DNA of 54,142 nt from a virus. Its lineage: Duplodnaviria; Caudoviricetes. A program made the position numbers and the translations under genes. Positions 1 through 24,782 of this stretch are shown in pieces. Under the pieces are notes generated by a model. It was not told the origin of the DNA. It made no database searches and was given only the letters and a program-made list of their open reading frames with translations. The stretch's first letter is position 1. Each line of letters opens with the position of its first letter. The stretch covers positions 1-54,142 of IMG/VR virus record IMGVR_UViG_3300007623_000010, one strand, 5' to 3'.

Positions 1-1
1 C

Positions 2-151
2 GAAGGTATGATTATCGCTCGCATCGAAGAATATCGTAATCTCGTAACATCGGCTATTAATACAGACCCAGCTATGGCTAGTATTGTTGATGGTGTTACT
101 GATCTTCAAGAAGTCATTGACAGTAAACTGTACAAATTTAAAATGGATTAA
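2..151 (+). CDS. 3' end of a helical protein, possibly phage Dps/ferritin-like (partial)
   Basis: Manual translation from base 2: EGMIIARIEEYRNLVTSAINTDPAMASIVDGVTDLQEVIDSKLYKFKMD*. The ending resembles, from memory, phage ferritin-like proteins. Confidence 0.4.
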   Translation, partial: EGMIIARIEEYRNLVTSAINTDPAMASIVDGVTDLQEVIDSKLYKFKMD

Positions 152-156
152 AAATT

Positions 157-593
157 ATGGGTTTTAAAGATTATTTAAACGAGAAAGTTTCATGGGCAAC
201 ATATAAAGGTCCTTACGTTCTCGGTGCAGAATATGAGGGCAAAGCATACGTCGCTAAGGGAGATCTTGATTTCACTGTAGCTTATGTAGATGGTGCTTGG
301 CGGATTCAAGATCCTAACGGTGAAGAATACGAACAAGGATTTAAAACTGCTGCTCTTGCTAAAAAAGCTGCTGCTGATTATATCGAAGGTTTAATGGAAT
401 CTGAAGATCTTAGTGAAGCATCTGCTAAAGAGAATAAAGAAAAAGCTCAGGATGCTTTGATGGCGCAGCGCAAGCCGCTTTTGAATCTGATGATGCCGAA
501 GATTCAGCTGTTTTTAAAGCTATGGATAAAGAGTTTGCCAGAATTGAAAAACTATTCGGTTATTCTCCAGGTTCTTGGACACGCGGCGTATAA
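157..593 (+). CDS. Putative capsid-targeted internal protein with an apparent 1-nt frameshift near 464
   Basis: Starts MGFKDYLNE. The -1 frame from about 465 reads AAQAAFESDDAEDSAVFKAMDKEFARIEKLFGYSPGSWTRGV* and ends in a TAATG overlap with the next gene at 591-595. Confidence 0.6.
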
Positions 594-874
594 TGACATT
601 TAAAGAATTTCTAGAAGAGAGTGTTGGAAAGTTCGAAAAAGAATATTTCCAACCTCTTAAACCAGCACAGAAAGCAGCAATTGAACGTGCCTTAGTTCCA
701 GATATCAAAATGTATTTAGGGGATGGGTATGACGTGACTCTACGCACTACTAAGGATGATGACCGCGGCACAGCTGTATTATTATACATTAAAAAGGGAA
801 GTGGCTTATCTACATTGGTTGCCCATAAGTCAATGGGTCCTAACGGAAAATTGGTTGATAAAAATATTAACTAA
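593..874 (+). CDS. Putative capsid-targeted internal protein
   Basis: ATG at 593 gives MTFKEFLEE, matching the T4 capsid-targeting-sequence pattern. Preferred over the TTG at 575. Confidence 0.65.
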   Translation: MTFKEFLEESVGKFEKEYFQPLKPAQKAAIERALVPDIKMYLGDGYDVTLRTTKDDDRGTAVLLYIKKGSGLSTLVAHKSMGPNGKLVDKNIN

Positions 875-888
875 ATGTGAAAAAAGTT

Positions 889-917
889 GTTTACATTAAC
901 TTCTAGTGTGATATAAT
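889..917 (+). promoter_or_regulatory. Early-type promoter for the DNA modification operon
   Basis: A-tract, GTTTAC at 889-894 and TATAAT at 912-917. Also has TTAA at 896-899, 12 nt before the -10. Confidence 0.75.
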
Positions 918-919
918 TC

Positions 920-953
920 AAAGGTAATCTGGTGAACAGATTGCCTTTTTTAT
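920..953 (+). terminator. Intrinsic terminator-like hairpin immediately downstream of the promoter
   Basis: AAAGGTAATCTG-GTGAA-CAGATTGCCTTT running into a T-tract. Confidence 0.65.
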
Positions 954-972
954 TAAGAAGTAAAGGATAGAT

Positions 973-1299
973 ATGAAATACGATAAAGGTAAACCAAAAA
1001 TGCACCTTATTCCACCAGAAGCATTAGAGTCTATGGCTATAGTGCTAGGTTTTGGTGCTGAAAAATATGGTGAAAACAACTGGCGCAAAGACATAAATAA
1101 TACTAGTTTCGGTCGAACATATTCATCCTTACAGCGTCATCTTAATGCATTTTGGTCAGGTGAAGACTTTGATCCAGAGTCTGGATTACCTCATCTTGAT
1201 CACGCTTTAACACAGCTTATGATCCTAAAGATGCAAACATTAGAATGCACAAACCAAGATATGGACGACCGTTTTAAGAAGGAAGAAACAAATGATTAA
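973..1299 (+). CDS. dATP/dGTP diphosphohydrolase-like protein (DUF5664-type)
   Basis: Signature motifs KYDKGKP..LIPP, VLGFGAEKYGENNW, RHLNAFWSGEDFDPESGLPHLDHA. Confidence 0.8.
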   Translation: MKYDKGKPKMHLIPPEALESMAIVLGFGAEKYGENNWRKDINNTSFGRTYSSLQRHLNAFWSGEDFDPESGLPHLDHALTQLMILKMQTLECTNQDMDDRFKKEETND

Positions 1300-1963
1300 T
1301 GACTATCTAAAAGTAAAAGATATTCGCAAACTATTCAAGATTGCGTACGACAACGAAGAATTTACGATTGATCGCACGGGTTCTAAAACTATTGAAATCC
1401 TAGGCGCAACGTTTATTGCAGATGAAGATCACATCATTCGTACTCCAGCTTATGAATATATCGAGCGTGAACTTGACTGGTATAAGTCTATGTCGCTATA
1501 TGTAGAAGACATCCCTGGAACCACTCCAACGATTTGGAAACAGATCGCGTCAGAAGAAGGAAAGATTAATAGCAACTACGGATGGTGTATCTATTCATCC
1601 GATAATGGCCAACAGTACGATAATGTTCTAGCTGAATTGAAATCTAATCCAGATTCTCGACGTGCCACAATGATCTACAATCGTCCATCTATGCATATTG
1701 ATTTTGAAAAGAACGGAATGAATGATTTCATGTGCACATTCGCTAACTCATTCTTTATCCGCGATGGCAAACTTATATCTCATTATATTATGCGCTCAAA
1801 TGATTCAGTTTTTGGATACAACAATGATTACGCCTGGGCTCGACATGTTCAAAAGGAATTAGCTGATGATCTTGGCGTAGAAGTTGGCGATCTTATCTGG
1901 ACCGTATCTAATATCCATGTATATGAACGTCACTTTGATCAGCTTGAGGCATTAAAAGTATGA
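1292..1963 (+). CDS. 42: dCMP hydroxymethyltransferase (T4 gp42 homolog)
   Basis: Close match to T4 gp42 motifs: KTIEILGATFIAD, YIERELDWYKS, INSNYGW, DSRRATMIYNRPSM, DFMCT (catalytic Cys), MRSND..FG..NDYAW (dCMP-specific Asp), HVYERHF. Confidence 0.93.
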   Translation: MINDYLKVKDIRKLFKIAYDNEEFTIDRTGSKTIEILGATFIADEDHIIRTPAYEYIERELDWYKSMSLYVEDIPGTTPTIWKQIASEEGKINSNYGWCIYSSDNGQQYDNVLAELKSNPDSRRATMIYNRPSMHIDFEKNGMNDFMCTFANSFFIRDGKLISHYIMRSNDSVFGYNNDYAWARHVQKELADDLGVEVGDLIWTVSNIHVYERHFDQLEALKV

Positions 1964-2499
1964 TAGGCGATTTTTTTAATAATGCTAGCGAACTATTCGA
2001 AGACGAACGTGAAATTTGCTCGCCTATGTTTGGGTTATCTTTTGATAATCCAGCAGCAGCATTAAAAGATGGCAACGACTATTATAATAATATGCTTAAT
2101 GAAACAATCGTCGAACGAAATAAAATTGAGCAATATTACTATGAGCGAATTAGAAATGGGTTAATGTCTAAATTAATTGAGATTAAATCATACTCTAATG
2201 TAAGTATTTTTGACACAAGACGATGGATTACAACGAATGATGACTGCATTAGTTCTGTACAAATTCTAATCAGAGATAAAATTTTCATAAATATATTTAT
2301 GAGAAGTTCGGATTTTGATGGAGCGCTTTCGTCAGATTTGAAGTTCTTTTCATCGTTGCCAACGTGGCTCATTAATCAGCTTATTAACATGAAAGATGAT
2401 TATAGATTTAACGAGGTTACTGATGAAAGCATAAATACGTTAAATAACATGGGTGTAGATATAAACATAATGTTTGGATCATTACACCGAACAAACTAA
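1960..2499 (+). CDS. Truncated thymidylate-synthase-fold protein
   Basis: DTRRW, DDCISSVQILIRD, MRSSD..SSDL and FGSLH correspond to TS/gp42 core motifs. ATGA overlap with gp42. Confidence 0.7.
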   Translation: MIGDFFNNASELFEDEREICSPMFGLSFDNPAAALKDGNDYYNNMLNETIVERNKIEQYYYERIRNGLMSKLIEIKSYSNVSIFDTRRWITTNDDCISSVQILIRDKIFINIFMRSSDFDGALSSDLKFFSSLPTWLINQLINMKDDYRFNEVTDESINTLNNMGVDINIMFGSLHRTN

Positions 2500-2510
2500 A
2501 GGAAGGAAAA

Positions 2511-3734
2511 ATGATTGGATTGTTCTTAGGCAAAGGCCTTGAAGGTTGCGGAGTTACAAAATACGCAATCGAAATGATGACATATCTTAAACAAAGTAAT
2601 ATAGACTATAAGTTATTCATCGCTGACGACAAAAAACATTCACGCAATAAATCACATGATTTGAGTGAATTCAACGTTGGGTTCTATCGAGCAATCCCAC
2701 CAAAACGAAAAGTCGTACCCACATTCGACGATATGATTAATGAAGCGAAAGAATGCGACACGATCGTTATTCTATCGATGCCTGTTAAAGGTTATGACGA
2801 ACAAATTTTATCTGAAACTAAGCGTTTCTTTGACTCGATTAAAGATAAAAATGTCGTTGTAACTCATCATAATCATAGTTCATTATACATGAAAAAAGAG
2901 GTGTTGCTTGATGATGTATTGGAAATCACTAACACTATCTTTACTCATAGCGCAGTAAACCCTGTAAACAAATATATTATAAACAAATATCCAAACGCGA
3001 AAATTTTTAACTTGAATCCTTCAATGTTTATTGATTCATTTAAAAAGTTTTGGAAACCCGTAAGCGAAATTGATACAAGTGTCGTTAATTGGATCGGTAG
3101 AACTACACCATGGAAAGGATACGATTTAGCTGTTAATTTTCATACAGATCATTTGAAGGGTCTAGGATTTAGCACATCAATGCATGGTATGGACCGTGGT
3201 CCAGCATTTATTGGTTTTAAAGCACTTCACGCAGGAAAATTCATACTGCAAGACAAAGAAATCCAAGATAATAAAGACAATCTTTGTGAAATCTTTGGAC
3301 CGTACGTTCAAGACAAAATGCTCGATAAAATGAGTAAATCTGGTTTTGTATTACAATTGACAAAAATTAAACCAGAAGAATTACAGCAGTCTTATTCACT
3401 TGAATTTACACATATTGAGGCTTTGTCTATTGGCTCAATTCCTGTATTTAGAACTGAACATGGTAATGCAGTAATTAGTCGTAAAGATGATCGTCCAATT
3501 ATTGAACACGATACTGGAATCCTTTGGCTGAACGAAAATAATCAAGCAGAAGTAGCTGCAAAAATGAAAGAAATCGCTAATGATCCTGCATTATTTGAAG
3601 AGCATAGAACAAAAGCGTATAATTTCGCTAAAGAACAATGCGACAGTAAAGTAGTATTCGATGAATTCTTTAGAGTAGTTAAAGAAGAAAATTCAAACTT
3701 AAACAAAGCTGATACCATAGGAGATGAATGGTAA
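2511..3734 (+). CDS. agt: DNA alpha-glucosyltransferase homolog
   Basis: GLEGCGVTK, HNHS, WIGRTTPWKG, MSKSGF, SLEFTHIE, GSIPVF and HDTGILW match T4 alpha-gt along its length. Confidence 0.9.
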   Translation: MIGLFLGKGLEGCGVTKYAIEMMTYLKQSNIDYKLFIADDKKHSRNKSHDLSEFNVGFYRAIPPKRKVVPTFDDMINEAKECDTIVILSMPVKGYDEQILSETKRFFDSIKDKNVVVTHHNHSSLYMKKEVLLDDVLEITNTIFTHSAVNPVNKYIINKYPNAKIFNLNPSMFIDSFKKFWKPVSEIDTSVVNWIGRTTPWKGYDLAVNFHTDHLKGLGFSTSMHGMDRGPAFIGFKALHAGKFILQDKEIQDNKDNLCEIFGPYVQDKMLDKMSKSGFVLQLTKIKPEELQQSYSLEFTHIEALSIGSIPVFRTEHGNAVISRKDDRPIIEHDTGILWLNENNQAEVAAKMKEIANDPALFEEHRTKAYNFAKEQCDSKVVFDEFFRVVKEENSNLNKADTIGDEW

Positions 3735-4966
3735 TGAAGTGGATTACAATTATACCATTGGCAGGTGGATATCCAGTGGGTGCTCAGAAAGATCTAGGTA
3801 CTGTTCCAGAAGCAGTTATCTCTTGGCCTGCATTTAAAGCAAACGACTCACATTATCAAAACTATTTGAGAACTGAGTATAATTATCCTGAAGAAAATTT
3901 TGTTCTTTTAGATGAAGAAAATAACGTAACACAAGGTAGTACGAATTACCTTTCAAAGGACATTGATATTGTTATTAGCACACCGCCATGTGCCGGATTG
4001 TCAATGCTAAATACTGGTAATTCTAAGGATTCAGATTCCGGACGTGGCGCATGTGCTGCACAGAATGAATGGATGAAACGAGCGTCTGAATATGCATTAG
4101 ATGTCATTAAACCGAAGGTTCTAATATTTGAGAACGCGCCAGGTCTGTACACGTCAAAAGATGGCGAAGAAGTTATGGACTATTTGAATAGTGTTGCTGA
4201 AAAATTTGGTTATAGTACGTCAGCAATCATGACTAGCACTGATCTTCATGGTATTCCACAAATTCGTAAAAGAACATTCTTTTATTTTTGGAAGTCTGAA
4301 ACTTCGCCACTAATTGAATTTAGCTCAACCGATGAAGTTGCACCTTCAATTAAAGAATATCTTTCTAAGAAACCTCCTTTTAAACAAGACAACATTTATC
4401 CAAAAGAAGGTTTACAAAACGACCCATTTTTTCAGTTTGTTAAAACGAACTATGATGACTTTAGATCTGATATGAATGAATCACGTAAACGTACAATGAC
4501 TCATCATATTATTAAAAGCGGAAAATTTGATGAATTTCATGATTACATTCTTGAGAATCACTCCGGTACTCCTGCTGCAAAATTCGTTCAGCACGCTAAG
4601 AAAAAGTTAGCAGATAATAAGAACTTCTTCGACCCTTCACCTAATTACTTCGGTGATGATAGATTGAATGGAATTGTAGGGAAAACAGTTACTCATACAG
4701 TGCATCCAATTGAAGATCGTTTCTTGTCTTATGGTGAATTGCTGTATTTTATGGGTTATCCTAACACATTTGAGTTATTAGAACCTAAGAAAAATACGAA
4801 TCATATTGCTCAGAACGTCCCAGTCACCACAGGTGCATGGTCAGTGAAACAAGCTAGATTATTCATCGAAGGAAAACTGCAAGAAACTGATAAAAAATTC
4901 GTTAAGCAGAACAACATTAAGAAAACAACTGACACTTTAGTCGCAACACAAATGGAGGAGTGGTAA
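3734..4966 (+). CDS. C5-cytosine DNA methyltransferase-fold protein with atypical motif I
   Basis: PPCAGLS (motif IV), IFENAP (VI), PQIRKRTFF (VIII), HPIEDRFLSYGE..MGYP (IX), IAQNVPV (X). Motif I reads IIPLAGG instead of F-x-G-x-G. TAATG overlap with agt. Confidence 0.8.
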   Translation: MKWITIIPLAGGYPVGAQKDLGTVPEAVISWPAFKANDSHYQNYLRTEYNYPEENFVLLDEENNVTQGSTNYLSKDIDIVISTPPCAGLSMLNTGNSKDSDSGRGACAAQNEWMKRASEYALDVIKPKVLIFENAPGLYTSKDGEEVMDYLNSVAEKFGYSTSAIMTSTDLHGIPQIRKRTFFYFWKSETSPLIEFSSTDEVAPSIKEYLSKKPPFKQDNIYPKEGLQNDPFFQFVKTNYDDFRSDMNESRKRTMTHHIIKSGKFDEFHDYILENHSGTPAAKFVQHAKKKLADNKNFFDPSPNYFGDDRLNGIVGKTVTHTVHPIEDRFLSYGELLYFMGYPNTFELLEPKKNTNHIAQNVPVTTGAWSVKQARLFIEGKLQETDKKFVKQNNIKKTTDTLVATQMEEW

Positions 4967-4983
4967 CACTCTTCCTAATTTTT
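4954..4983 (+). terminator. GNRA-loop hairpin terminator ending the modification operon
   Basis: GGAGGAGTG-GTAA-CACTCTTCC followed by TAATTTTT. Confidence 0.6.
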
Positions 4984-5032
4984 AAACAGTACTATGTTAT
5001 AATATCAATAAATTGAAAAAAGGAAAGAAAAG

Positions 5033-5461
5033 ATGATTAAAGAATTTGAAGACGTTCGTCAGTGGAAAAAAATTCGTGGTATCGGTGGAGCAGAAGACGC
5101 ACCTATGAAAGATCGACTGCAATCTCAATATCAGCGTGTTATGCAAGAATGTATTGAAATTCACGAAGCAATTGTTCTTGAAGATGATGAAGAATTTATG
5201 GACGCAATTGGCGATACGATTGTGACTCTTATTAATCTAGCTGATATCAAAGGCGTTAAAGCAGAAGATTGCTTAGCACAGGCATTTGGTGTAATTGATC
5301 TACGTAAAGGTTTGACACGTCCTACTGGTGACTTTGTCCGTTATGCTAAACTATCTTTTTCTGATCAAGAAATCTGTGATAATAAACAAGGCAATACTGC
5401 TTCAGAATATTTCCTAGAAGAAGATAAGAGCACACTTACCCCAGATTGTTTTAAGAAATAA
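5033..5461 (+). CDS. MazG-like nucleotide pyrophosphohydrolase
   Basis: QECIEIHEA..DAIGDTIVTLI..EDCLAQAFGVI..RKG, an all-alpha NTP-PPase pattern. Confidence 0.75.
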   Translation: MIKEFEDVRQWKKIRGIGGAEDAPMKDRLQSQYQRVMQECIEIHEAIVLEDDEEFMDAIGDTIVTLINLADIKGVKAEDCLAQAFGVIDLRKGLTRPTGDFVRYAKLSFSDQEICDNKQGNTASEYFLEEDKSTLTPDCFKK

Positions 5462-5472
5462 TGTAAAAAACC

Positions 5473-5502
5473 GTTTACACGCCGTTAATGTTTAGGTATA
5501 AT
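5473..5502 (+). promoter_or_regulatory. Early-type promoter
   Basis: A-tract, GTTTAC at 5473, TATAAT at 5497. Confidence 0.7.
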
Positions 5503-5530
5503 AGAGATAGCAAATAACCAAAGGAAAGAT

Positions 5531-6463
5531 ATGAAAATCATCGATAATAGCAAATCAGTTTGGTACGAAAAATATAAGCCAGCTTGCATCGAAGATCTTG
5601 TTATTCCAAACGAGATCAAAACAAAGTTAACTAGATATGTACAAACACAGGATATACCTAACATCGGCTTGTTCTCGTCTAATCCTGGGACGGGTAAATC
5701 TAGCTCAGCACATGCCATTATCAAGGAAATCGGTGGTGAAGCTCTATGGATTAACGCATCTATGGAGAAAGGTATCGATGTTCTTCGTGGCAAAGTGCAG
5801 AAATTTGCCTCGCAGTCATCATTTGATGATAACATTAAAATTGTTGTTATGGACGAGTTTGATCACTTCTCTAAAGATGGTCAAGCAGCATTCCGTGGAT
5901 TCATTGACGAATTCAGTGTAAATTGTCGTTTTATTTTTACTGGCAATTATAAAGAAAAGATTATTCAACCTTTGCTTGATCGACTAGAAGTATATGATTT
6001 CAACTCATTCAGCAAAGAGGAAATGATCAAGCCTATATTCGAAAGACTAAAATGGATTTTAGAAAACGAAAATGTACAGTACGACCCTAAATCTCTTGTG
6101 CCAGTCATTAATACGTACTATCCGCGTATTCGCTCAATGGTTGGAGCACTACAAAAGTTTAGCAAAGACGGCGTTTTTACTGTATCTGAACATGAACTTG
6201 ACGATGTCAATGTATTCGATAAAGTGATGCAACTTGTTCATATGAATACATTTACTGATATGATTACAGAGGTAAATAAACTAAACGCTCCAGATAATAT
6301 GTATACGTACCTCTATACTAATGCTGCAAAATATTTTGCACCACAGGTATACCCACAAGTCGTATTGATTATTGCAAAATACCAGCATATGTCTGATTCA
6401 GTTCGTAATAAAAACTTGAATTTGGCTGCTTGTCTCACAGAATTAATTAAGTTAAAAGGATAG
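5531..6463 (+). CDS. 44: Clamp loader large subunit (gp44)
   Basis: WYEKYKP, Walker A PGTGKS, INAS, Walker B VVMDEFD, QAAFRGFIDEFS..CRFIFTGN. Confidence 0.93.
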   Translation: MKIIDNSKSVWYEKYKPACIEDLVIPNEIKTKLTRYVQTQDIPNIGLFSSNPGTGKSSSAHAIIKEIGGEALWINASMEKGIDVLRGKVQKFASQSSFDDNIKIVVMDEFDHFSKDGQAAFRGFIDEFSVNCRFIFTGNYKEKIIQPLLDRLEVYDFNSFSKEEMIKPIFERLKWILENENVQYDPKSLVPVINTYYPRIRSMVGALQKFSKDGVFTVSEHELDDVNVFDKVMQLVHMNTFTDMITEVNKLNAPDNMYTYLYTNAAKYFAPQVYPQVVLIIAKYQHMSDSVRNKNLNLAACLTELIKLKG

Positions 6464-6466
6464 ATA

Positions 6467-6682
6467 ATGTTACAGACAATTTCAGAATATTCTCATATGA
6501 TAGGCTTGTATTGCTATATGGCACTTTTCGTCTGGCTATTTAACGCCTTTCTTGCTGGATATAATGGCACAGCACCTAGCCGTGAAGATTTTTTTCAAAG
6601 TGTTCTCTGGCCAATCTCAATTGTAGTACTACTTGGAATAACAACAAAAATCATCGTACAGTCGATTACAAAAAATAAATAA
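6467..6682 (+). CDS. Small membrane protein
   Basis: Two hydrophobic segments with an LWP motif; AGGA RBS. Confidence 0.65.
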   Translation: MLQTISEYSHMIGLYCYMALFVWLFNAFLAGYNGTAPSREDFFQSVLWPISIVVLLGITTKIIVQSITKNK

Positions 6683-6690
6683 GGGATCAA

Positions 6691-7872
6691 ATGAACGTAA
6701 AATTACAAGTATCACATAACCCAGAAGAGCTTTCTGTCGATGAAGCGGTACTCGTTTACAAGGACATAGACGAAGGTTATACTTGCACAATTTCTGATGC
6801 ACAATTTAAACATGAAGAATTCAATAAATTCATAGGTGATATTGAAGCAGCATACGGAAAGTTTAGAGTTTTTGATTATTCACGAGGAAAAACCAATTTC
6901 TTTAAGAAATATTTTGGAAGCAAAATCCGAATTTATTCTCGTGGAAATTCATTAGATATGTTCGCGTCTGTCTTCTGTAAAGATGAAGAAGATCTCAATG
7001 AAGTTTGGAAGATCTACATGAAACATAAACCGATTGAAGATTCGGTTGATATGTTTATGACTTCATATTACATGAATGGAGGACAAGTAGACGAAACTGC
7101 TAAAGTTATGGATTCAAAGGATATTCAGTACATATCGGAAAAATATTACCCATATATTGATACTGAAATCATGTTCGACAGATTCTTTACTGGCGACGAA
7201 AATATTCTACTTCTTGTTGGCGATCCGGGTTTAGGTAAATCTAAACTAAGCACCTTAGCATTAAAGCACGCTTATACGAACGATGATAAATTGCCGTACG
7301 ACAAACTATCAATGAATCCAGCATTAGAAAATCAATATATCAGTATTGGATATGTCAAAAGCACAGATGTATTGGCGAATGATAAATTTTGGAGGATTAT
7401 TGAAAAGGCAAATCATGACTTTGTTATTATTGACGATTTAGACTACATGCTGACTAAACGCGATTCAGAAGTAATGTCTATTGATGATGCTAAAAAGAAT
7501 GATTTCTTGAACCAATTCCTATCATTTACCGATGGTGTAGAAAAACATAAAACAAAGTTTATTATAACAACTAACCAAAAATATGACGACATTGATTCTG
7601 CGCTATTGCGTAAAGGTCGATTGTTTGACATACTTGAACTGCGCGAGCTATCTAAAGATGAAGCTCTTGAAATTTGGAAAGATAACAGTTTAGAACCTGA
7701 TACGTTCTATCAAATATTCTCTCATCTGGACAATATTGCAGCAGCAGAACTTGGATCTGAAATTAAGAAACGTTTGAACACACGTATTGACTCAGCAACT
7801 GCAGAATATCTCAAAGAAAGTGGCATCTCTAAAATTCAGAAAGCTACCCGCAAGAAAAAAATCGGTCTTTAA
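6691..7872 (+). CDS. AAA+ ATPase
   Basis: GDPGLGKS, IIDDLD, FLSFTDG, IITTN, IDSALLRKGRLFD (second region of homology with Arg finger). Confidence 0.85.
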   Translation: MNVKLQVSHNPEELSVDEAVLVYKDIDEGYTCTISDAQFKHEEFNKFIGDIEAAYGKFRVFDYSRGKTNFFKKYFGSKIRIYSRGNSLDMFASVFCKDEEDLNEVWKIYMKHKPIEDSVDMFMTSYYMNGGQVDETAKVMDSKDIQYISEKYYPYIDTEIMFDRFFTGDENILLLVGDPGLGKSKLSTLALKHAYTNDDKLPYDKLSMNPALENQYISIGYVKSTDVLANDKFWRIIEKANHDFVIIDDLDYMLTKRDSEVMSIDDAKKNDFLNQFLSFTDGVEKHKTKFIITTNQKYDDIDSALLRKGRLFDILELRELSKDEALEIWKDNSLEPDTFYQIFSHLDNIAAAELGSEIKKRLNTRIDSATAEYLKESGISKIQKATRKKKIGL

Positions 7873-7941: not shown

Positions 7942-9537
7942 ATGAAGAAGTTTGAAGCAACTTGGCGCGACGGTTTTAAGTTTTACGAAAGATACTACGA
8001 TACTGATCTAAACCGTTCAATGCATCGTGTAATTAATCTCCCATACGAGTGGTACGAACCATCAAGCACCGGACTTTATTCATATATTCTTGATGACTCA
8101 ATTAAGCTTGACAAAAAGCAAGGTAATGCTAAGCAAGGCCGTGATCATTACGGTTTTCTTGATCCAATGTACCGTAACATTCGTGATAATTACTGGAACA
8201 AAGATGCTTACAATCTTAAGCCACGTGTTTGGTATCTAGATATTGAAACGCGTGTTGGTACGTGTAGCACTGGTTTTCCTGTTCCCGAGAAAGCAGCAGA
8301 ACCTATATCTTTGATCCAGATCTTTGATTCTGAAACTGACGCGGTTATTATGCTTGGCGTACGTGAATGGAAACATCAGAATTCATACGATTTTGAATAC
8401 CCAGTAAAATACATCAAATGTGATGATGAAATCCATCTAATCGAAACATACCTAAAACTATTCCAAGCAATGAACCCGTTAATCATCTACGCTTGGAACG
8501 GCTTAGGATTCGATTATCCTTACATTTACAATCGTCTCAAAAATCTTGGCATGGATACTAATAAACTTAGTAACTATGGTGGTGTATCGTATTCAGAAAG
8601 CGAATTCCAAGGCCGTCTTGAATTTAAATTTAACGCTAATGGCCACTTCTATATTGATTTGATGAATGTTTACAAAAAGTTTGTATTCAGTCCTCGTCCA
8701 TCATATTCGTTGGACTCTATTGCTGAAATTGAACTAGGTGAAAACAAAGTTGATCACTCCGAGTATTCAGGGTTTGACGACTTTTACACCGGTAAATACA
8801 ACATTCCAGAAAATCCAAACGAAAAACAGTTGAACTCAGCAATCTATAAAGAAGCGATCGCTGGCAATATAGAAGAAGTAAAAGAATTAGCACACTCTGA
8901 ATTCTGTTACTACGGCTATAAAGATCCATTGCTTATTAAAAAGATCGACGACAAACAGAACTTTACAGCTCTTATGCTTATGATTGCTGAAAAAATGGGT
9001 GTACAAATTGGTGACAGTACAGGAACGGTAAAGCCGTGGTCACAGTATATCCTTAATAAATCAATGATGAATATGCAGGTAATGCCTCCACGTACGGAAA
9101 ACGATTCACCCCACGTTGTTGGCGGTTATGTACGTGATCCGAATAAAGGTAAACACAAATGGGTAATATCTGCCGACGTTAACTCAATGTATCCTCTTCT
9201 TGGAATGGTTGGTTTCAATATGAGTCCTGAAACTTATGTTGAAAAATATAACCTTCCTCCAGAACTTAGAGATATTGTACTCGCTAAGTTTAATGACCAA
9301 GATGAAGAAAAACGATTAAATATGGATGAATCAATTTGGAATGCAACTACCGAATTGTTGAACAAACATAATCTTGCACTAGGTATCAATGGTGCGGTAT
9401 TTAAGAAAGATAAGATTGGCATGGTTCCTGAAATGGTGCAAGACATCTATGATTCAAGGAAACAAGCTAAGAAAACGATGTTCAAATATCAACAGCAAAA
9501 AATCAAAATCAATGAGTTAATTAAGGAAAAATCATGA
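7942..9537 (+). CDS. 43A: Family B DNA polymerase, N-terminal part (gp43A: exonuclease and palm motif A)
   Basis: YLDIET (ExoI), WNGLGFDYPY (ExoII), SYSLD, YGYKD (ExoIII), GGYV, DVNSMYP (motif A). Ends in the fingers helix RKQAKK. Confidence 0.93.
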   Translation: MKKFEATWRDGFKFYERYYDTDLNRSMHRVINLPYEWYEPSSTGLYSYILDDSIKLDKKQGNAKQGRDHYGFLDPMYRNIRDNYWNKDAYNLKPRVWYLDIETRVGTCSTGFPVPEKAAEPISLIQIFDSETDAVIMLGVREWKHQNSYDFEYPVKYIKCDDEIHLIETYLKLFQAMNPLIIYAWNGLGFDYPYIYNRLKNLGMDTNKLSNYGGVSYSESEFQGRLEFKFNANGHFYIDLMNVYKKFVFSPRPSYSLDSIAEIELGENKVDHSEYSGFDDFYTGKYNIPENPNEKQLNSAIYKEAIAGNIEEVKELAHSEFCYYGYKDPLLIKKIDDKQNFTALMLMIAEKMGVQIGDSTGTVKPWSQYILNKSMMNMQVMPPRTENDSPHVVGGYVRDPNKGKHKWVISADVNSMYPLLGMVGFNMSPETYVEKYNLPPELRDIVLAKFNDQDEEKRLNMDESIWNATTELLNKHNLALGINGAVFKKDKIGMVPEMVQDIYDSRKQAKKTMFKYQQQKIKINELIKEKS

Positions 9538-9824: not shown

Positions 9825-10027
9825 ATGAAATAACGTCTAAGACTTGCAAAACTTGTGGTAAAACGAAAGAATTAAAAAAGTTTTATCACAAGTTCAAACA
9901 TGAAAAGTTGCAGTGTTGTGCACATTGTAAAGATTGCTGTAAAGTTTTGCGTCAGCAGAAAGAAACAAAGCAAATTAAGCAAGTACTAGGTATAATATCT
10001 AATATGAATTTAGAAGGACGACTATGA
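9809..10027 (+). CDS. Zinc-finger protein, possibly a homing endonuclease remnant
   Basis: CKTCGKTKELKKFY..CKDC resembles the N-terminal Zn module of HNH/EndoVII-type homing nucleases. No nuclease domain follows. Confidence 0.5.
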   Translation: MASGVNEITSKTCKTCGKTKELKKFYHKFKHEKLQCCAHCKDCCKVLRQQKETKQIKQVLGIISNMNLEGRL

Positions 10028-11142
10028 AAGACCCATTAGATTATACAGACGATGAACTAAACGCAATGTCAGTCGACGAACTAAAACAACTTGCACAAGA
10101 AGCAGAATACAAAGAAGGACTCTTCAATACGAGACAGCTCGTTGAAAAGGTACTTATTAACTCACTTTATGGTGCTCTTGCGAATAAGTACTTTCCACTA
10201 TTCAATGAACAAATGGCAGCTGCTATCACCGGTAATGGTAGATACTTTATTCAAAAGCTAGCTAACTACATTGAGAATACACTTCAGGGTCTTCTACCGC
10301 AGGAAAAACCGTATATTGTTTATGGCGATACTGACTCAGTTTATTATCATGTTGAACCTTTCGTAGAAAAATACATTGAAAATAACCCTGGGCAAAGCAT
10401 TGATCACTATGTTACATGGGCTGATTCATTTGAACAAAAAGTAATCCAACCCGTTATTCAGAAAACAATTGACGATTTTGCTACTGAACTAAATGCATAT
10501 AACGTAGGTGCTATCGGCGCAGAACGTGAAATCATTGCTGATGCAGCAGTCTTTACAGCTAAGAAAAAGTACTATGCACGTGTTAGAGATTCAGAAGGTA
10601 CACGTTTCCCCGAGTCAGACCCTTACATTAAAGTTATGGGCCTTGAAATCGCTAAATCAAGTACTCCTACATGGGCTAAGAAAAAGCTTAAAGAAGCTAT
10701 TCCTCATATTCTTGATAAAGATGAAAATGATTTACGCGACTGGGTTAACGAAATTAAGCAAGAATTCATTACTACCAATCCAAACAATATCGCATTGATC
10801 GGTGGTGTATCCAATCTTAACTATGATCTTCAAAAAGATAAAGGTGTGCCAATTGGTTCTCGTGCTGCTTTAGTACATAATGATTATGTTCAAACTCATG
10901 GACTAGCAGAAAAGTATTCACCTATTCAAGCTGGCGATAAGTGTAAGCGTCTATTTTTACAACAACCCAATGTATTTAATAGCAACATTATTGCTTATAC
11001 AAATGATGCTTTCGTTAACGAAATTGATTGTATTGATTTTGATACAAACTTTGAAAAAGGTTTCTTATCGGCGTTGAAATTAATGGTTGAACCTTTGAAC
11101 TACGATCTTGAAAAAGAAACAGCGAATTTAGATGATTGGTAA
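10024..11142 (+). CDS. 43B: Family B DNA polymerase, C-terminal part (gp43B)
   Basis: KVLINSLYG (motif B), YGDTDS (motif C), KKKY, IKVMGLEIAKSSTP; C-terminus NLDDW. Confidence 0.93.
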   Translation: MKDPLDYTDDELNAMSVDELKQLAQEAEYKEGLFNTRQLVEKVLINSLYGALANKYFPLFNEQMAAAITGNGRYFIQKLANYIENTLQGLLPQEKPYIVYGDTDSVYYHVEPFVEKYIENNPGQSIDHYVTWADSFEQKVIQPVIQKTIDDFATELNAYNVGAIGAEREIIADAAVFTAKKKYYARVRDSEGTRFPESDPYIKVMGLEIAKSSTPTWAKKKLKEAIPHILDKDENDLRDWVNEIKQEFITTNPNNIALIGGVSNLNYDLQKDKGVPIGSRAALVHNDYVQTHGLAEKYSPIQAGDKCKRLFLQQPNVFNSNIIAYTNDAFVNEIDCIDFDTNFEKGFLSALKLMVEPLNYDLEKETANLDDW

Positions 11143-15751: not shown

Positions 15752-15967
15752 TTGTTTGAATTATACTTTAAAGAAATCCTAGAAAACACAGATGTACTTT
15801 ATTATAATTATAGAGGGATTTCAAAAAAGGAATACCCAAAGTGGGAAGGTTGGAAAATCATAGCTCAATATAAAGAATTGAACTATGACATTAAAGAAAT
15901 ACAAGACGAAAAATTGGATACATTAGTAAAAAATTTTTATTACATCAAATATCTCGAAGAAGGTTAA
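15752..15967 (+). CDS. Hypothetical protein
   Basis: TTG start with AAGGA RBS; convergent with the terminase. Confidence 0.55.
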   Translation: MFELYFKEILENTDVLYYNYRGISKKEYPKWEGWKIIAQYKELNYDIKEIQDEKLDTLVKNFYYIKYLEEG

Positions 15968-17784
15968 TTAAACTCTTCAATAATTGGATGACCGTTCCAA
16001 AACTTTTGCTCTTTCCCAAAAAACTCTTCGTCTGCGCCATCATCAAAAGAGCCGATTGTTAGCATTTCACTAAAATTAGTTCTATCTTCTTCAGATAATT
16101 CGTTTTCATCAGTGTAAAGATTTTTGACTAGCTTTTTCATATCTTCGAAGTTTCTAGTGTTAGTAAACGGCGCAAACACTAGAGCCAACGACATAATCAT
16201 ATCGTCATGGCAGCCATCGTCTGCTTGATATTTTCCGTTGTGAAGAATGAATGTAAAAAATTCATTAATGGTTGATTTATCATTAATTTCCAGCTTATCG
16301 TTCTCAATGAACAATTTCATTGTTTGTAATATTTGTTTACGTGTCTTAGGTGTTGTTCTAAAGCCTGGGTACTTTTTCTTTTTATTACGGCCGACATCTT
16401 TATCAAAATGTAAATTTTCATATTCATAAGTCTGATAAAGTTGGTCCGCAATCGATTGTCCAGCGCCTTCATTATTTTCAATTATTAAATACGCGTTATT
16501 GTAATCTTGTGCCCATTCATATATGAATTCAGGCATCAATAGATAATCAATTTGTATTTGTGCAGCCGCGACTTGTTTAAACGTAAAATCAGTGATGTCA
16601 ATAATCTGCACAGCAAAGGCATCATTACCATCTTTAGCTGCATCAATTGACATGATATAGTTATGTCCCCTTTCGGGGTAATGATAAATTTTTAGTTTAC
16701 CGTCTCTAATTTCATGCAGTTCACCTTCACCCATTAATTGAAGCTTGTTGGCGCTTATCAGCGTATAGGATGATCCTAAGAACTCATTCGCGTAGTTCTG
16801 ATTAAAGTAAACAATACCGTGTTTAGCAATAATCTTTTCTTGGAATTCTTCAGGCTTCATTTGAGAACCATCAGGGTTGTATCTCGGCACATCTTTCCAA
16901 TCAACTTCGTAAATGTTCATACCATTTACGCCGTCTCTAGCACCTTTAACCATTTGATAAAAATGGTTCATACCGTTAGCTGTACTCAGAATAATATTTT
17001 TCTTCCAAGCAAGACCAGATTGTGATGGGAAAATAGAATCTGCGAACTCTTCCCAAACAGTTGGCCGAATAAACGCACACTCATCTACGACGAGAATAGC
17101 GATAGTATAACCACGGAAAGCATCTGAGTTTGGAACATCTGTTAGAATGCGCATTTTAGATTCGTTTTCTATTGAACCTTTATTCCACATATTGGTGCCT
17201 TGCTGCATCCAGATTGGAAGTTCAATAAGAATATTCTTAGTATTAGCCAAGAATTCTCTTGCCTGAGCGCCTTTGTTACCTACTATACCAATATTAATGT
17301 CTTTACCGAAATTAAATACCCATGCTAAGTAAATCGCTGTACTGATTGACTTACCAGATTGACGACCCATTAATCCGATGTTATCTTCATTTTCGTCTGG
17401 TATAATGCTGTTGATGAACTCATCTTGATATGGGCGAATGTCAGGAAAGTTTACGCCGGATTTTGTTTTGATTTTAATGTAGTTATCTTTGAAATAGTGA
17501 ATGTCACTTGCACATTTTTCCATTTCTTCGATATGTATAGGAGATAACGGAAGCTTTGTGAAAGGCTTTTTAAGTCGTCGGTTGCCATTAAATGAAATTC
17601 TATTCTGATAAGAATCTAAATAATATTGTTCATTGTCTTTTTCTAGATCTAAAATATCAATCGCTATTTGTTTACCTTCGTTGCCTTGACTGCGTAACTC
17701 AGCAAGCAACTCAGATGTTACTTCAGACTTATTAGATCGAAGATGCTCAATCACATCATCAGTAAAAATTTTCTTAATAGACAT
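15964..17784 (-). CDS. 17: Terminase large subunit (gp17)
   Basis: YQ adenine motif, GRQSGKS, VVDECAF, STANGMNHFY, FNQNYANEF, SIDAAKDGND, IENNEGAG, HDDMIMSL. Confidence 0.95.
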   Translation of the reverse strand: MSIKKIFTDDVIEHLRSNKSEVTSELLAELRSQGNEGKQIAIDILDLEKDNEQYYLDSYQNRISFNGNRRLKKPFTKLPLSPIHIEEMEKCASDIHYFKDNYIKIKTKSGVNFPDIRPYQDEFINSIIPDENEDNIGLMGRQSGKSISTAIYLAWVFNFGKDINIGIVGNKGAQAREFLANTKNILIELPIWMQQGTNMWNKGSIENESKMRILTDVPNSDAFRGYTIAILVVDECAFIRPTVWEEFADSIFPSQSGLAWKKNIILSTANGMNHFYQMVKGARDGVNGMNIYEVDWKDVPRYNPDGSQMKPEEFQEKIIAKHGIVYFNQNYANEFLGSSYTLISANKLQLMGEGELHEIRDGKLKIYHYPERGHNYIMSIDAAKDGNDAFAVQIIDITDFTFKQVAAAQIQIDYLLMPEFIYEWAQDYNNAYLIIENNEGAGQSIADQLYQTYEYENLHFDKDVGRNKKKKYPGFRTTPKTRKQILQTMKLFIENDKLEINDKSTINEFFTFILHNGKYQADDGCHDDMIMSLALVFAPFTNTRNFEDMKKLVKNLYTDENELSEEDRTNFSEMLTIGSFDDGADEEFFGKEQKFWNGHPIIEEFN

Positions 17785-20263: not shown

Positions 20264-21454
20264 ATGGGTGGTAACGTAACCGCAAAGAATTGGACTACTG
20301 GTGAAGAAACTAGAGCTGAGAAAATCCAAGTAAAAGACATTGGACGCCAAGAGTTCATTAAAACTTTCGTTGAAATCTTTAAGAAAATGAATAAGGATTT
20401 TAAAGCGAAATACAAAAAGCCAATCTGGGTTAATGAAGATATTTTGACATCTGGTTTTGCGTTTAATGGCAGCACATCCTTTATAATGGACCCAACATTA
20501 TCTGACGAAGAAGTCATGAAATACAAGCCATCTGCCGGTGATTTAGACATTACTGTGCCAGAAGAAATCGGTACAGAATTATGGGAATTCTTAAATAAAT
20601 TAGAAGGTAAAGAAATTTTACCCGGTGCACGCTACATGGGTTCTAATCGTGGTAATAAAGATGCGATCGGAGACCAAATTAACGCTGTCATCATGGTAGA
20701 TTTCAAAAATGGACAACGTGCTTATGCACAAGTTGACTTTGAACTATTACCATTTGAAAATGATAAACCAACTGAATGGGCTAAATTTAGTCACTCTTCT
20801 TCGTTTGAAGATGCGAAAGCTGGCGTTAAAGCTGTTCACCATAAGTTCTTAATTTCTTCAATTGTCGGTGGAGCTTCAGTACGTGACGATATTGTTATTG
20901 CGACACCAGCATCTACACCTGAAAAAATTAGACTTAAGAAAATGGCACAGCTACCGCGTATGCTAAAATTCTCAGTTACACGTGGTATTCGTATTGCTTA
21001 TGAGCCAATGATTGGAGAAGACGGTAAAATTATAGAAATCGATGGAAAACAAGTTTATCGTGAAATTCCAACTAAGGATAGTACATACGAAACTGTTATT
21101 GCTGAAATCTATAAATTAGCCTTTAGACAATTAGTTGGGCATGAGGCTGACGTTAGAAAATTTGAATCTTTTGTTGGAGTTCTTGAATTGATGAAACAAT
21201 TCATGACTAAACAGGAAATTGATCGTACACATGATCGTTATTTACAGATGCTCTTTGAACCAACTAAAGGTAGAGCACAAGAATTAGAAGCTGGTAATCC
21301 ACAATTAGATTATCAAGTAAAATCAGCTGGTTATCAGCGATTCATAAAAGAATTAAAACTTAAAGATAAATCTCAGAAAATGGTCGAAGAATATTACAAA
21401 ACATACCGATTAAGAGAATCTTTTAGAGACTATTTAAATACATTAGGAGAATAA
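20264..21454 (+). CDS. Pol-beta superfamily nucleotidyltransferase-like protein
   Basis: FNGSTS..AGDLDITV..AQVDF fits the hG[GS]..DhD..hD signature. Confidence 0.65.
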   Translation: MGGNVTAKNWTTGEETRAEKIQVKDIGRQEFIKTFVEIFKKMNKDFKAKYKKPIWVNEDILTSGFAFNGSTSFIMDPTLSDEEVMKYKPSAGDLDITVPEEIGTELWEFLNKLEGKEILPGARYMGSNRGNKDAIGDQINAVIMVDFKNGQRAYAQVDFELLPFENDKPTEWAKFSHSSSFEDAKAGVKAVHHKFLISSIVGGASVRDDIVIATPASTPEKIRLKKMAQLPRMLKFSVTRGIRIAYEPMIGEDGKIIEIDGKQVYREIPTKDSTYETVIAEIYKLAFRQLVGHEADVRKFESFVGVLELMKQFMTKQEIDRTHDRYLQMLFEPTKGRAQELEAGNPQLDYQVKSAGYQRFIKELKLKDKSQKMVEEYYKTYRLRESFRDYLNTLGE

Positions 21455-21455
21455 A

Positions 21456-21677
21456 ATGGCATTCGGTAAAAAACTAACTGATGATAGATACTCTGTCGAG
21501 TTAAAAGAAACAGTACAAGAACGCATTGGTTACTTAGTAAACTTTGATGTTATGCTAACTACTAACGGTGATGAAATATTTTCATTCAAATCAAAAGATG
21601 TTCAGGCTGATCTAGCAGCTTTATCAGATACTAAATACACAGTAACTTTTGGTCAATCTACTATATTCGTAAAATAA
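21456..21677 (+). CDS. Hypothetical protein
   Basis: AGGAG RBS; lies within the operon. Confidence 0.65.
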   Translation: MAFGKKLTDDRYSVELKETVQERIGYLVNFDVMLTTNGDEIFSFKSKDVQADLAALSDTKYTVTFGQSTIFVK

Positions 21678-21686
21678 GGTTTTAAT

Positions 21687-23198: not shown

Positions 23199-24091
23199 AA
23201 TTTAGAGATGTTTTAGAGGGAAAAGTCAACGTAAAAAGACTTAACGAAAGCAATGTCATGTCTATGGCGGAAAGTCAGGGCGCAGAAGCTACTGATGCGT
23301 TAAGAAAGCATGTTAATGAAAAACTAGGTATTAAAGCCGACATCCCAAAAATTAAAACAAATAATTTTAGTGCGTTCGCTAGCCAATACAATTCTTTGTA
23401 TAATCAGTTTAAGAAAGAGTTCATCTCTATTTTTAATTACGAAGTAAAGGGTATCGGTAGAGGCGAAATTTTGCTTTCTTATCTTGCTGATAACATTAGT
23501 ATTAATGGCGGTAAGGGTGATTACGACGTAAACTTTGGTAACACTAAAATGGAAGTTAAAGAAGTTGCAACAACTGCAACTTATTTTAAAAACTTTAGAC
23601 TAGGTGTACTTTCAAGAGAGTATTTGCAAAAAGCATATAATGATATTAAGTATCTTTACGGCGTTGCAAAATATCACATTCCAGAAATTAATACTGCTGC
23701 ATTTGAAGCAAAAGTCGCAAAAGGTGAGTTAACTACGTTAATTAAACCATTAAAAGACTTCGTTCCAACTAATCTAGGTGATGTTCAACGAATAGCTGTA
23801 GAAATTACAAAAACCGGCAAATTGTTTTTCGAAGGGCGTGAAGTAGGTAATATCAAGAATGCACAAGCAATTATAACTGATATTCTTGATAAAGAAACTC
23901 ACAAGTTCAAATCTTTTAATATGATAGAAACCGAATTAAGAAATAATCTTAATAAGAAAACAATGCCTTACATTTTCTTTGGTGATAATAAAGGTAAAGA
24001 AACGGCAATGCTGTTTTATAGAAAGGATTTAGGCGATCTTGAAATTGATACTATCACACAGGGTAATGTTAAGGTCAAAATTCCTAGATAA
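23195..24091 (+). CDS. PD-(D/E)xK nuclease-like protein, putatively capsid-targeted
   Basis: GIGRGEILL..GDYDV..MEVK; starts MKFRDVLE. Confidence 0.5.
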   Translation: MKFRDVLEGKVNVKRLNESNVMSMAESQGAEATDALRKHVNEKLGIKADIPKIKTNNFSAFASQYNSLYNQFKKEFISIFNYEVKGIGRGEILLSYLADNISINGGKGDYDVNFGNTKMEVKEVATTATYFKNFRLGVLSREYLQKAYNDIKYLYGVAKYHIPEINTAAFEAKVAKGELTTLIKPLKDFVPTNLGDVQRIAVEITKTGKLFFEGREVGNIKNAQAIITDILDKETHKFKSFNMIETELRNNLNKKTMPYIFFGDNKGKETAMLFYRKDLGDLEIDTITQGNVKVKIPR

Positions 24092-24092
24092 T

Positions 24093-24135
24093 TAAACAAC
24101 AATATGTTATATTAATAATGTAAACAACAATATGT
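24093..24135 (+). repeat. 15-bp direct repeat in an intergenic promoter region
   Basis: TAAACAACAATATGT at 24093-24107 and 24121-24135. Confidence 0.75.
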
Positions 24136-24147
24136 AAGGTTGAAAAA

Positions 24148-24336: not shown

Positions 24337-24357
24337 ATTATACACGAAGGAAAGAAT

Positions 24358-24780: not shown

Positions 24781-24782
24781 CC

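Follow-up and report, generated by a model that had tools for sequence, protein, structure and literature searches.

The viral record IMGVR_UViG_3300007623_000010 of IMG/VR, which is ~28% complete and was analysed over its whole length of 54,142 bp (hereafter the window), carries a cassette of genes for the modification of cytosine in DNA. The window has a G+C content of 31-41% and holds T4-like replication genes (clamp loader, split family-B polymerase, DnaB-like helicase and topoisomerase II), and the source of the cassette is a T4-like marine phage. Five co-directional open reading frames (ORFs) on the + strand lie within 973-4966, overlapping or nearly abutting, and are followed by a MazG-like gene (Table 1). 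The junctions from ORF1 to ORF5 are, in order, an 8-nt overlap, a 4-nt ATGA overlap, an 11-nt gap and a TAATG overlap. An earlier note on this DNA, made from its letters, had described five tightly packed or overlapping genes between one promoter and one terminator, with a MazG-like gene after them; the ORF coordinates and junctions bear out this layout, the promoter and the terminator being consensus matches only. The gene identifications given in the same note were likewise confirmed by Pfam, PHROG and PDB matches and, for ORF3, by remote methods. Two products are the main subjects of this work, namely ORF5 (MT), a protein with the fold of DNA cytosine-C5 methyltransferases (C5-MTases), and ORF3, a minimal paralog of thymidylate synthase (TS).

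Table 1. Genes and putative signals of the cytosine-modification cassette (positions in the window).
Feature	Position	Strand	Evidence or remark
Sigma-70-like promoter	890-917	+	TTTACA, 16 nt, TATAAT, extended -10 TG; 11/12; consensus match only
12-bp hairpin and T-run directly after the promoter	920-948	+	Terminator of the upstream gene (575-874) or 5' leader structure
ORF1, 108 aa, PF18909 all-alpha nucleoside triphosphate (NTP) pyrophosphohydrolase domain	973-1299	+	Pfam, PHROG 801
ORF2, 223 aa, dCMP hydroxymethylase (T4 gp42 type)	1292-1963	+	Match to T4 dCMP hydroxymethylase, residue signature
ORF3, 179 aa, minimal TS-fold paralog	1960-2499	+	AlphaFold2 (AF2)/Foldseek, profile links, invariant residues
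ORF4, 407 aa, DNA alpha-glucosyltransferase (T4 AGT family)	2511-3734	+	PF11440, match to T4 AGT
ORF5 (MT), 410 aa, DNA cytosine-C5 methyltransferase fold, virus-only PCA/ENA subfamily	3734-4966	+	PF00145, motifs, fold
Terminator-like 9-bp hairpin and T-run; loop holds the MT stop codon	4954-4985	+	Consensus match only
ORF6, 142 aa, MazG-like NTP pyrophosphohydrolase	5033-5461	+	PHROG 715; below Pfam cut-off

Both overall similarity and individual residues identify the product of ORF2. It matched PF00303 (1.3e-22, 80.7 bits versus a cut-off of 24.3) and, over residues 1-216, the T4 dCMP hydroxymethylase in the PDB (2.9e-75, versus 3e-15 for the E. coli TS). According to the accessible part of a 2026 paper, some phage TS homologs make 5-hydroxy-dCMP, and the residues of these enzymes can be read so that N177D directs them to dCMP, an acidic residue at L143 to hydroxymethylation and D169N to 5-hydroxylation (PMC13326640). 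ORF2 carries the catalytic Cys in DFMC, an Asp at the ThyA N177 position (NNDYAW), another at L143, where it precedes the Cys by three residues, and an unchanged Asp at D169 (RSND); judged by these four residues, it is a hydroxymethylase-type enzyme and not a 5-hydroxy-dCMP synthase. Synthesis of 5-hydroxycytosine (5hoC) was considered for both TS-fold proteins and is ruled out, as neither ORF2 (RSND) nor ORF3 (RSSD) has Asn at the D169 position.

ORF4 covers positions 1-354 of the 355 of the AGT profile PF11440 (1.6e-56, 192.4 bits versus a cut-off of 25) and aligns with T4 AGT (1xv5, 7.4e-68) by its residues 2-390 against 4-399. Since the other members of the AGT cluster in the MT loci described below are just 20-35% identical, the transferred sugar may differ. 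Two NTP pyrophosphatase candidates flank these genes. ORF1 matched PF18909 (dGTP_diPhyd_N, 7.6e-31), which we take to be the former DUF5664, as well as PHROG 801 (3e-36), with no match in PDB and NCBIfam searches, and its homologs stand directly upstream of gp42 in five other loci (L025, L073, L074, L141 and L169); it is a candidate dCTPase, dCTP being its presumed substrate. ORF6 scored 18.9 bits with PF03819 (MazG), below the Pfam cut-off of 22, and matched the MazG-like PHROG 715 at 4e-13; homologs of 54-87% identity lie downstream of MT in L088, L090, L091 and L096. It is on the identities of ORF1, ORF2, ORF4 and ORF6 that we read the core of the locus as a T4-like pathway to glucosylated 5-hydroxymethylcytosine (hmC).

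ORF3 had no match in Pfam (including PF00303), PHROG or NCBIfam, its sequence search of the PDB returned chance-level matches only (E >= 0.06), and tblastn against isolate phages found none. As BLASTP of ORF2 versus ORF3 was not significant either, the homology of the two proteins rests on profiles and fold. An exhaustive HMMER search gathered a family of 68 representatives at E <= 1e-3, 23 of them at <= 1e-10, and E18, E57, R87, C96, R115-S116-S117, D126 and a C-terminal FGSLH are invariant across 28 sequences of 23-50% identity. The AF2 model of ORF3 (pLDDT 96.8) found as its best Foldseek matches in the PDB TS-fold enzymes that act on (d)CMP, namely the HY126 dCMP hydroxylase (9iqu, 1e-6), the T4 dCMP hydroxymethylase (1e-5) and MilA. 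The ORF3 profile matched gp42-like proteins at ~1e-5, and hhalign against the gp42 alignment (E 6e-5, probability 65%, 36 core columns only) paired R87-R88 with R123-R124, C96 with C148 and RSSD with RSND; by the same offset as this core, D126 falls on the cytosine-specifying D179. ORF3 keeps the RR pair, the catalytic Cys, RSxD, the cytosine-type Asp and the C-terminal His, while the stretch from E57 to R87 measures ~30 residues versus ~63 in ORF2, with the region of the folate-side Trp and Tyr (ThyA W80/W83, Y94) shortened. ORF3 is a minimal TS-fold protein with its nucleotide and covalent-catalysis side intact and its folate side unrecognisable; what the earlier note had called a truncated TS paralog was recovered by remote methods only (AF2/Foldseek and the profile-profile comparison).

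Some relatives of ORF3 are longer. Ten of the 68 were scanned, namely the long members and a small number of others, and of these two had an N-terminal thymidylate-kinase domain above the Pfam Thymidylate_kin cut-off and two more scored below it. A locus search of IMG/VR with an 8-row alignment of ORF3 gave eight loci, of which four were weak partial matches in other contexts and four were close (L088-L091). In these four the ORF3 homolog comes directly after a gp42 ortholog (75-87% identity), and the order is gp42, ORF3, sugar-activation genes, glycosyltransferase (GT) and MT, the last only partly matched in L091. A MazG-like gene follows MT in L088, L090 and L091.

The assignment of MT to the C5-MTase fold comes from several comparisons. 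MT matched PF00145 (8.2e-20, 71.9 bits versus a cut-off of 22), and hhalign against three canonical phage C5-MTases gave a probability of 99.4%. Its AF2 model (pLDDT 88) had DNA C5-MTases as top Foldseek matches in the PDB (TM-score, normalised to the target, 0.65 for M.HaeIII and 0.63 for M.HhaI), and it also matched DNMT1, ZMET2 and CmoX. Invariant in 24 aligned sequences are P85-C86-A87, E133-N134-A135, Q176, R178, R180 and Q360-N361-V362-P363, which correspond to the catalytic motifs IV (Pro-Cys), VI (Glu-Asn), VIII (QxRxR) and X (Asn-Val-Pro) of C5-MTases, so that the full covalent-catalysis set of Cys, Glu, two Arg and motif X Asn is kept. All 24 sequences share two variants, PCA in place of PCQ and ENA in place of ENV. 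On the cofactor side, P8, L9, G11, G12 and a Ser or Thr at position 30 are conserved in the family. As far as its sequence tells, MT is a C5-MTase-fold enzyme with an intact base-side machinery and a cofactor side that is unusual and family-conserved.

A word-indexed protein search found 210 relatives of MT at E <= 1e-3, most of them 35-40% identical and the closest 56% and 51%. The Atlas neighbours of MT are clusters labelled 100% viral, and the only isolates with full-length relatives are Pseudoalteromonas phage vB_Psh_XG4 and the S-TIM5 cyanophage group, at 34-35% identity. Two MT genes from the loci described below (L014, 10001-11155, and L020, 7347-8504) contain six and seven in-frame TGA codons at positions occupied by Trp in relatives, and TGA is thus probably a Trp codon in these phages; motif IV of both reads P-I-C-S.

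A scan of IMG/VR yielded at least 577 relatives of MT, and for the best 80 loci ORFs were called and clustered and the clusters named by Pfam. MT ORFs were called in 78 of the 80, the TGA-recoded pair (L014 and L020), both with a GT next to MT, falling outside this count. Wherever at least 5 kb upstream of MT was present, cassette genes were found (52/52 loci; hydroxymethylase-type TS, GT, sugar or DNA-kinase genes), including a cytosine-type TS homolog in 32 and a GT of four recognised clusters in 39, and in each of the nine MT loci where no such gene was seen, the upstream sequence is shorter than 1.7 kb. Small ORFs, where present, come first in the typical order, followed by the gp42-like gene, the dCMP deaminase, the variable genes and MT. 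The variable part may hold alpha-GT-like, GT-B or TAGT (PF20691) transferases, nucleotidyltransferase-kinase fusions, a cytidylyltransferase or an epimerase, or else a set of inositol-1-phosphate synthase, HAD phosphatase and 5-hydroxymethyldeoxyuridine (5-hmdU)-DNA-kinase-like protein. MT marks the 3' edge of this glyco island, which starts at gp42, and at least four different contexts of replication genes lie downstream.

The TS-cluster proteins of these loci are mostly of the cytosine type. Asp occupies the N177 position in 41 of 44, and 40 of the 41 combine it with a second Asp at L143 and an unchanged D169; Asn stands at N177 in the remaining three, which are second, canonical TS copies. 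At the level of whole records, a TS-family gene was present in 31 of 46, in 4/4 of those with a completeness of at least 90% and in the two complete genomes of isolates that carry MT. These data show a link between MT and hmC cassettes. The neighbourhood search across phage genomes that the earlier note had proposed as a check on its reading turned out positive, with MT tied to gp42-type and GT cassettes and ORF3 placed after gp42 in the four close loci. TET/JBP (PF12851) was above the cut-off in 0/46 records, with one 13-bit match, with no control genome that holds TET and with the window record only ~28% complete; TET as the partner of MT is rejected on this count, and the cluster 6 protein beside MT, also considered as TET, is a sugar epimerase/dehydratase by Pfam.

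Two kinds of variable gene deserve separate mention. In L054, L055, L062, L077, L083 and L084, and also in L130, L153 and L155, an inositol-type set stands between the gp42-type hydroxymethylase and MT and comprises a myo-inositol-1-phosphate synthase, a HAD phosphatase, a 5-hmdU-DNA-kinase-like protein (PF18723) and an uncharacterised protein of ~352 aa; its make-up suggests a decoration of hmC, of phospho or inositol type, that has not been described. In two gp42 cassettes a UDP-galactopyranose mutase gene lies directly upstream of MT (4039-5046 in L068 and 7540-8559 in L171), which suggests that galactofuranose could be placed on hmC, by analogy with the mutase for the 5hoC glycans of RL38JI in the accessible part of PMC13326640.

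The reverse test was anchored on gp42 and took the best 80 IMG/VR loci by similarity of gp42 to ORF2 of the window (54-80% identity). Among the 45 with at least 6 kb downstream, MT was present in 28 (19/19 at a gp42 identity of >= 66%, 9/26 at 54-61%). Where GT queries matched nothing between the deaminase and MT, this interval held GT8, UDP-galactopyranose mutase, uncharacterised proteins of 360-370 aa or GT1/GT4-like proteins, one of the latter above the Pfam cut-off and two weakly below it. Because the genes in the interval vary, MT has no fixed transferase partner; its tie is to the hmC core gene, across the variable glyco island whose far border it forms, and not to the alpha-GT as such.

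No isolate phage matched the window at 900-5500 by megablast. The N-terminal part of the window polymerase is 65% identical to that of the Vibrio phage Va1/phiKT1024 group (genomes of 191-196 kb). Va1 has no cassette beside its clamp loader, no MT in a search whose positive controls rang, and only a TS that scores as canonical; since Va1 is the nearest isolate by polymerase, the cassette is accessory in this lineage. The left genome end of XG4 (PP712099.1, L001) carries at 100-6580 a gp42-like gene, a gene for a 131-aa protein, a nucleotidyltransferase-kinase fusion, two GTs and MT, a complete cassette like those of the other MT loci in a genome that is unannotated, and XG4 is a cultured system in which MT could be studied. 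In S-TIM5 (NC_019516.2, L002), the protein annotated as 'thymidylate synthase' (2757-3593 of the locus, minus strand) has Asp at N177 and Cys at L143, residues that could point to a dCMP methylase instead of a TS or hydroxymethylase.

Bacteriophage T4 makes its glucosyl-hmC DNA with the gp42 dCMP hydroxymethylase, the gp56 dCTPase, the gp1 dNMP kinase and alpha- and beta-glucosyltransferases. The window shares the logic of this pathway, replacement before replication followed by glucosylation on DNA, since ORF2 and ORF4 are clear homologs of gp42 and of the alpha-GT and candidates for an NTP pyrophosphatase flank them. The pyrophosphatases differ, being PF18909 and MazG-like proteins here and gp56 in T4, and to our knowledge T4 has neither a C5-MTase-fold gene nor a minimal TS paralog. 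As the earlier note proposed, the cytosine chemistry may differ from that of T4, for instance in a genome with both 5-methylcytosine (5mC) and glucosyl-hmC or in one with a further-derivatised hmC.

The reading that we prefer is that of a cytosine-replacement and decoration cassette, in which the DNA would contain alpha-glucosyl-hmC and MT would modify the leftover cytosines; taken as a whole, we hold this statement to be evenly balanced between right and wrong. The cassette would be expressed early. ORF2 would, as its homology indicates, convert dCMP to 5-hydroxymethyl-dCMP (hm-dCMP), which would then be phosphorylated and incorporated as hmC by the phage polymerase, while ORF1 and/or ORF6 would hydrolyse dCTP and in this manner exclude C from DNA; in the 54 kb seen, no dNMP kinase, beta-GT or dCMP deaminase was found. 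ORF4, again by homology, would add glucose to hmC in DNA in alpha linkage. ORF3 might act beside gp42 as a folate-independent TS-fold protein that binds dCMP or hm-dCMP and, because some homologs are fused to a thymidylate-kinase-like domain, could be a subunit or a hand-over module towards a dNMP kinase. MT might be a dedicated DNA-level cytosine-C5 enzyme of hmC cassettes that acts after replication, and our committed guess is that it would methylate the cytosines that escaped replacement. This choice rests on base-side residues that match those of true methyltransferases and on the conserved Asn of motif X. On this view, alpha-glucosyl-hmC would predominate in virion DNA, 5mC would make up a small fraction, and bare C would be absent.

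A number of observations weigh against this proposal. A backstop role for MT would need incomplete replacement, since full removal of dCTP, as in T4, would leave a C5-methyltransferase almost no substrate. MT is also not essential for hmC DNA, given that 17 of the 45 gp42-anchored loci with enough flank, as well as T4, are without it, and the MT gene and the TS homolog of S-TIM5 are ~2.4 kb apart on opposite strands, with no recognised GT. The linkage counts stand without a control set of ordinary phage C5-MTases, a scan with the MT of HCTV-16 having given no loci. Further points concern the protein itself. The FxGxG of motif I aligns in hhalign to (I/V)-P-L-x-G, so that a canonical motif I is missing, and the acidic residue of motif II aligns to the invariant Ser/Thr. 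The Pfam alignment of the window MT begins only at residue 62, the alignment from the PDB profile search is confined to motifs IV-VIII and IX-X, and the score against the NCBIfam dcm model TIGR00675 is 49.9 bits, below the cut-off of 100.65. With motifs I and II noncanonical, the N-terminal 60 residues outside the Pfam and PDB profile alignments and the dcm score under the cut-off, binding of S-adenosylmethionine (SAM) by MT is uncertain. The description of this protein as atypical in the earlier note finds its basis in the same features, together with PCA and ENA. Finally, the small Ala residues that follow the Cys and end the ENA motif would be compatible with a larger substituent at C5 or a larger group to be transferred; changes of the Q82A type are known from engineering work to enlarge the pocket of C5-MTases.

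Several of these points lead to another explanation, that MT is not a plain SAM methyltransferase and that the attack of its Cys at C6 serves hmC-related DNA chemistry. Once replication is over, it might turn the remaining C into hmC by means of a one-carbon donor that is not SAM and so open every site to the transferases, or it might activate or process the 5-CH2-OX group of hmC, decorated or not. In vitro and in the absence of SAM, bacterial C5-MTases can attach formaldehyde to C, take it off hmC and join thiols to hmC; a natural enzyme with the role proposed here is not known to us. The change of PCQ to PCA and of ENV to ENA in 24/24 sequences would be in keeping with such chemistry, as would cofactor motifs I/II that are remodelled yet invariant within the family, and so would the attachment of MT to the hmC core gene across sets with alpha-GT, GT-B/GT4-like, GT8, TAGT, UDP-galactopyranose mutase and inositol-phosphate synthase. 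Yet the Ser/Thr could still bind the ribose of SAM, and no gene for one-carbon metabolism or cofactor synthesis recurs beside MT in the locus maps. We regard this explanation as possible but rather unlikely.

A natural C5-MTase-fold enzyme that uses another cofactor does exist, namely CmoX with carboxy-SAM (Cx-SAM), as described in the accessible part of PMC12783734. In the CmoX/CmoA/CmoY system of Synechococcus phage S-B43, which produces 5-carboxymethylcytosine, a C5-MTase-fold enzyme makes the handle for further modification, and MT resembles CmoX in the small residue after the catalytic Cys (PCS in 8yf3), 8yf3 being among both the sequence and the fold matches of MT. The two differ in motif IV, SPPC in CmoX versus T/V/S-P/C-P-C-A in the MT family (TPPCA in the window), and above all at the position of M.HhaI N304, where CmoX has the Arg that allows use of carboxy-SAM (PMC12783734) and MT an invariant Asn. 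The Asn faces the methyl group in M.HhaI, and its retention in MT, unlike the Arg of CmoX, also speaks against the view that MT is not a plain SAM methyltransferase. The reading of MT as a CmoX-type enzyme was considered and is ruled out by this invariant Asn361 (QNVP). S-B43 was absent from the tblastn matches of MT, CmoA itself not having been searched for.

A broader form of the same idea would make the PCA/ENA proteins a new non-SAM class of DNA C5 enzymes of hmC phages and ORF3 a TS-fold enzyme of a new kind that works on dCMP or hm-dCMP without folate, a combination that we consider improbable. If it were true, the PCA/ENA enzymes would be post-replicative proof-readers that hydroxymethylate the cytosines missed by replacement and let every C be glycosylated, or would swap or further process, by Cys-C6 catalysis, what is attached to the 5-methylene of hmC.

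MT might also be an ordinary orphan methyltransferase with an anti-restriction function that stands beside the cassette only through the synteny of DNA-metabolism genes. It has all the catalytic motifs of C5-MTases, it borders conserved replication genes (clamp loader, polymerase and helicase clusters) in most loci, and in S-TIM5 it lies outside any glyco cassette. The similarity of MT tracks that of the GT (Spearman 0.23-0.50) and of the TS (0.18-0.34) weakly, from which we draw no conclusion. Synteny alone fits poorly with the cassette genes of all 52 loci with enough flank and with downstream neighbours that change between lineages while the upstream cassette stays. It fits no better with the presence of MT in 19/19 close gp42 loci, with the TS-family gene of every record at least 90% complete and of both isolates, which is of the cytosine type where it lies inside the fetched locus, or with Atlas neighbours that make the subfamily virus-only. 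This explanation is accordingly a doubtful one, and we would be surprised if it held. The last alternative, that MT acts on host DNA or RNA as a take-over function and that ORF3 is a decayed, inactive duplicate of gp42, could draw on the established chemistry by which hmC-substituted phage DNA offers no C5-H to methylate, and on an ORF3 that lacks an alignable folate-side region and any Pfam, PHROG or NCBIfam match, but it is highly improbable, since ORF3 is clearly constrained (invariant residues across 28 sequences, a very confident model), the data give no pointer to RNA or host as target, and DNMT2, although among the Foldseek matches of MT, ranks below DNA methyltransferases.

The preferred reading, replacement of cytosine by decorated hmC with MT acting on what is left, can be set beside other phage systems. 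In the accessible part of Burke et al. 2021 (PMC8256090), phage C5-MTases are tied to clusters of TET (5mYOX) and GT genes. The likeness lies in a phage C5-MTase-fold gene grouped with DNA glycosyltransferases, TAGT-type GTs occurring in some of our MT loci, and the difference in the absence of TET/JBP from the 46 records here. In these loci a TS homolog supplies hmC, so that the hydroxymethyl handle does not require MT. GT-B pathways have been reported often near ThyS, and methyltransferases are listed among the neighbours without further analysis in the accessible part of bioRxiv 10.1101/2023.12.21.572611; the main text of the MetaGPA paper does not mention methyltransferases.

Other TS-fold enzymes work on dCMP without folate chemistry, as do the 5hoC synthases of the arabinosyl-5hoC clusters of RB69 and DLP3 (PMC13326640, accessible part) and the HY126 dCMP hydroxylase (9iqu/9iqc). 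The 5hoC synthases differ by D169N, absent in ORF2 and ORF3, and ORF3 is ~55 residues shorter and gave no evidence of a flavin. A ThyS-deaminase pair has been described, together with Xp12-type phages whose dCMP methylase leads to replacement of C by 5mC before replication (bioRxiv 10.1101/2024.12.05.627091, accessible part). Many MT loci likewise have as their core a dCMP deaminase beside a TS homolog of the cytosine type; the difference is that ORF2 of the window has Asp at L143, and only the S-TIM5 homolog is non-acidic (Cys) there. In our literature search, whose reach excluded supplements (including the MT alignments of Burke et al.) and non-open papers, neither a ThyS-linked C5-MTase subfamily nor a minimal TS paralog turned up, nor did anything on point about DNA modification in XG4 and S-TIM5.

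Promoter-like sites were not enriched in positions 1-7000 (25 observed versus 30.4 expected from shuffles), and terminator-like sites numbered 6 versus 2.9 expected. ORF6 probably has its own promoter. MT has an alternative start at the ATG at 3728, which would give a protein of 412 aa; the start at 3734 is preferred because of a GGAG 9-10 nt upstream, the TAATG coupling to AGT and the 410 aa of the database cluster.

Elsewhere in the window, positions 20264-26834 could hold a second sugar-related group, with uncharacterised proteins of 396 and 503 aa (PHROGs 19290 and 27149) and a further one of 298 aa, a cytidylyltransferase-like gene (24358-24780, PF01467) and a family-25 glycosyltransferase (26121-26834, PF01755). 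The cytidylyltransferase-like protein shares 41-53% identity with the product of a gene (cluster 47) found inside the MT cassettes of other phages, and therefore the DNA glycan may exceed glucose, or the genes of 20264-26834 may serve another target. The split family-B DNA polymerase is encoded at 7942-9537 and 10024-11142 with a 96-aa ORF between the two parts; in Va1, a MobE homing endonuclease lies between the polymerase halves. On the minus strand, a large terminase subunit gene stands amid replication genes (15964-17784) and a tail sheath stabiliser-like gene lies at 25078-26079.

The hypermodification of phage DNA is a source of anti-defence biology and of enzymes for epigenome sequencing. 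With at least 577 relatives in IMG/VR, the MT subfamily is virus-only, a near-constant companion of TS-type hmC cassettes, and marks the far border of a variable island of glyco genes. Either cytosine replacement in these phages is incomplete and a second, DNA-level modifier is needed, or the methyltransferase fold has been recruited to a new C5 chemistry. In addition, the locus maps point to undescribed decorations, those of the inositol-phosphate synthase/HAD/DNA-kinase-like sets and of the UDP-galactopyranose mutase genes, and to a minimal TS-fold family.

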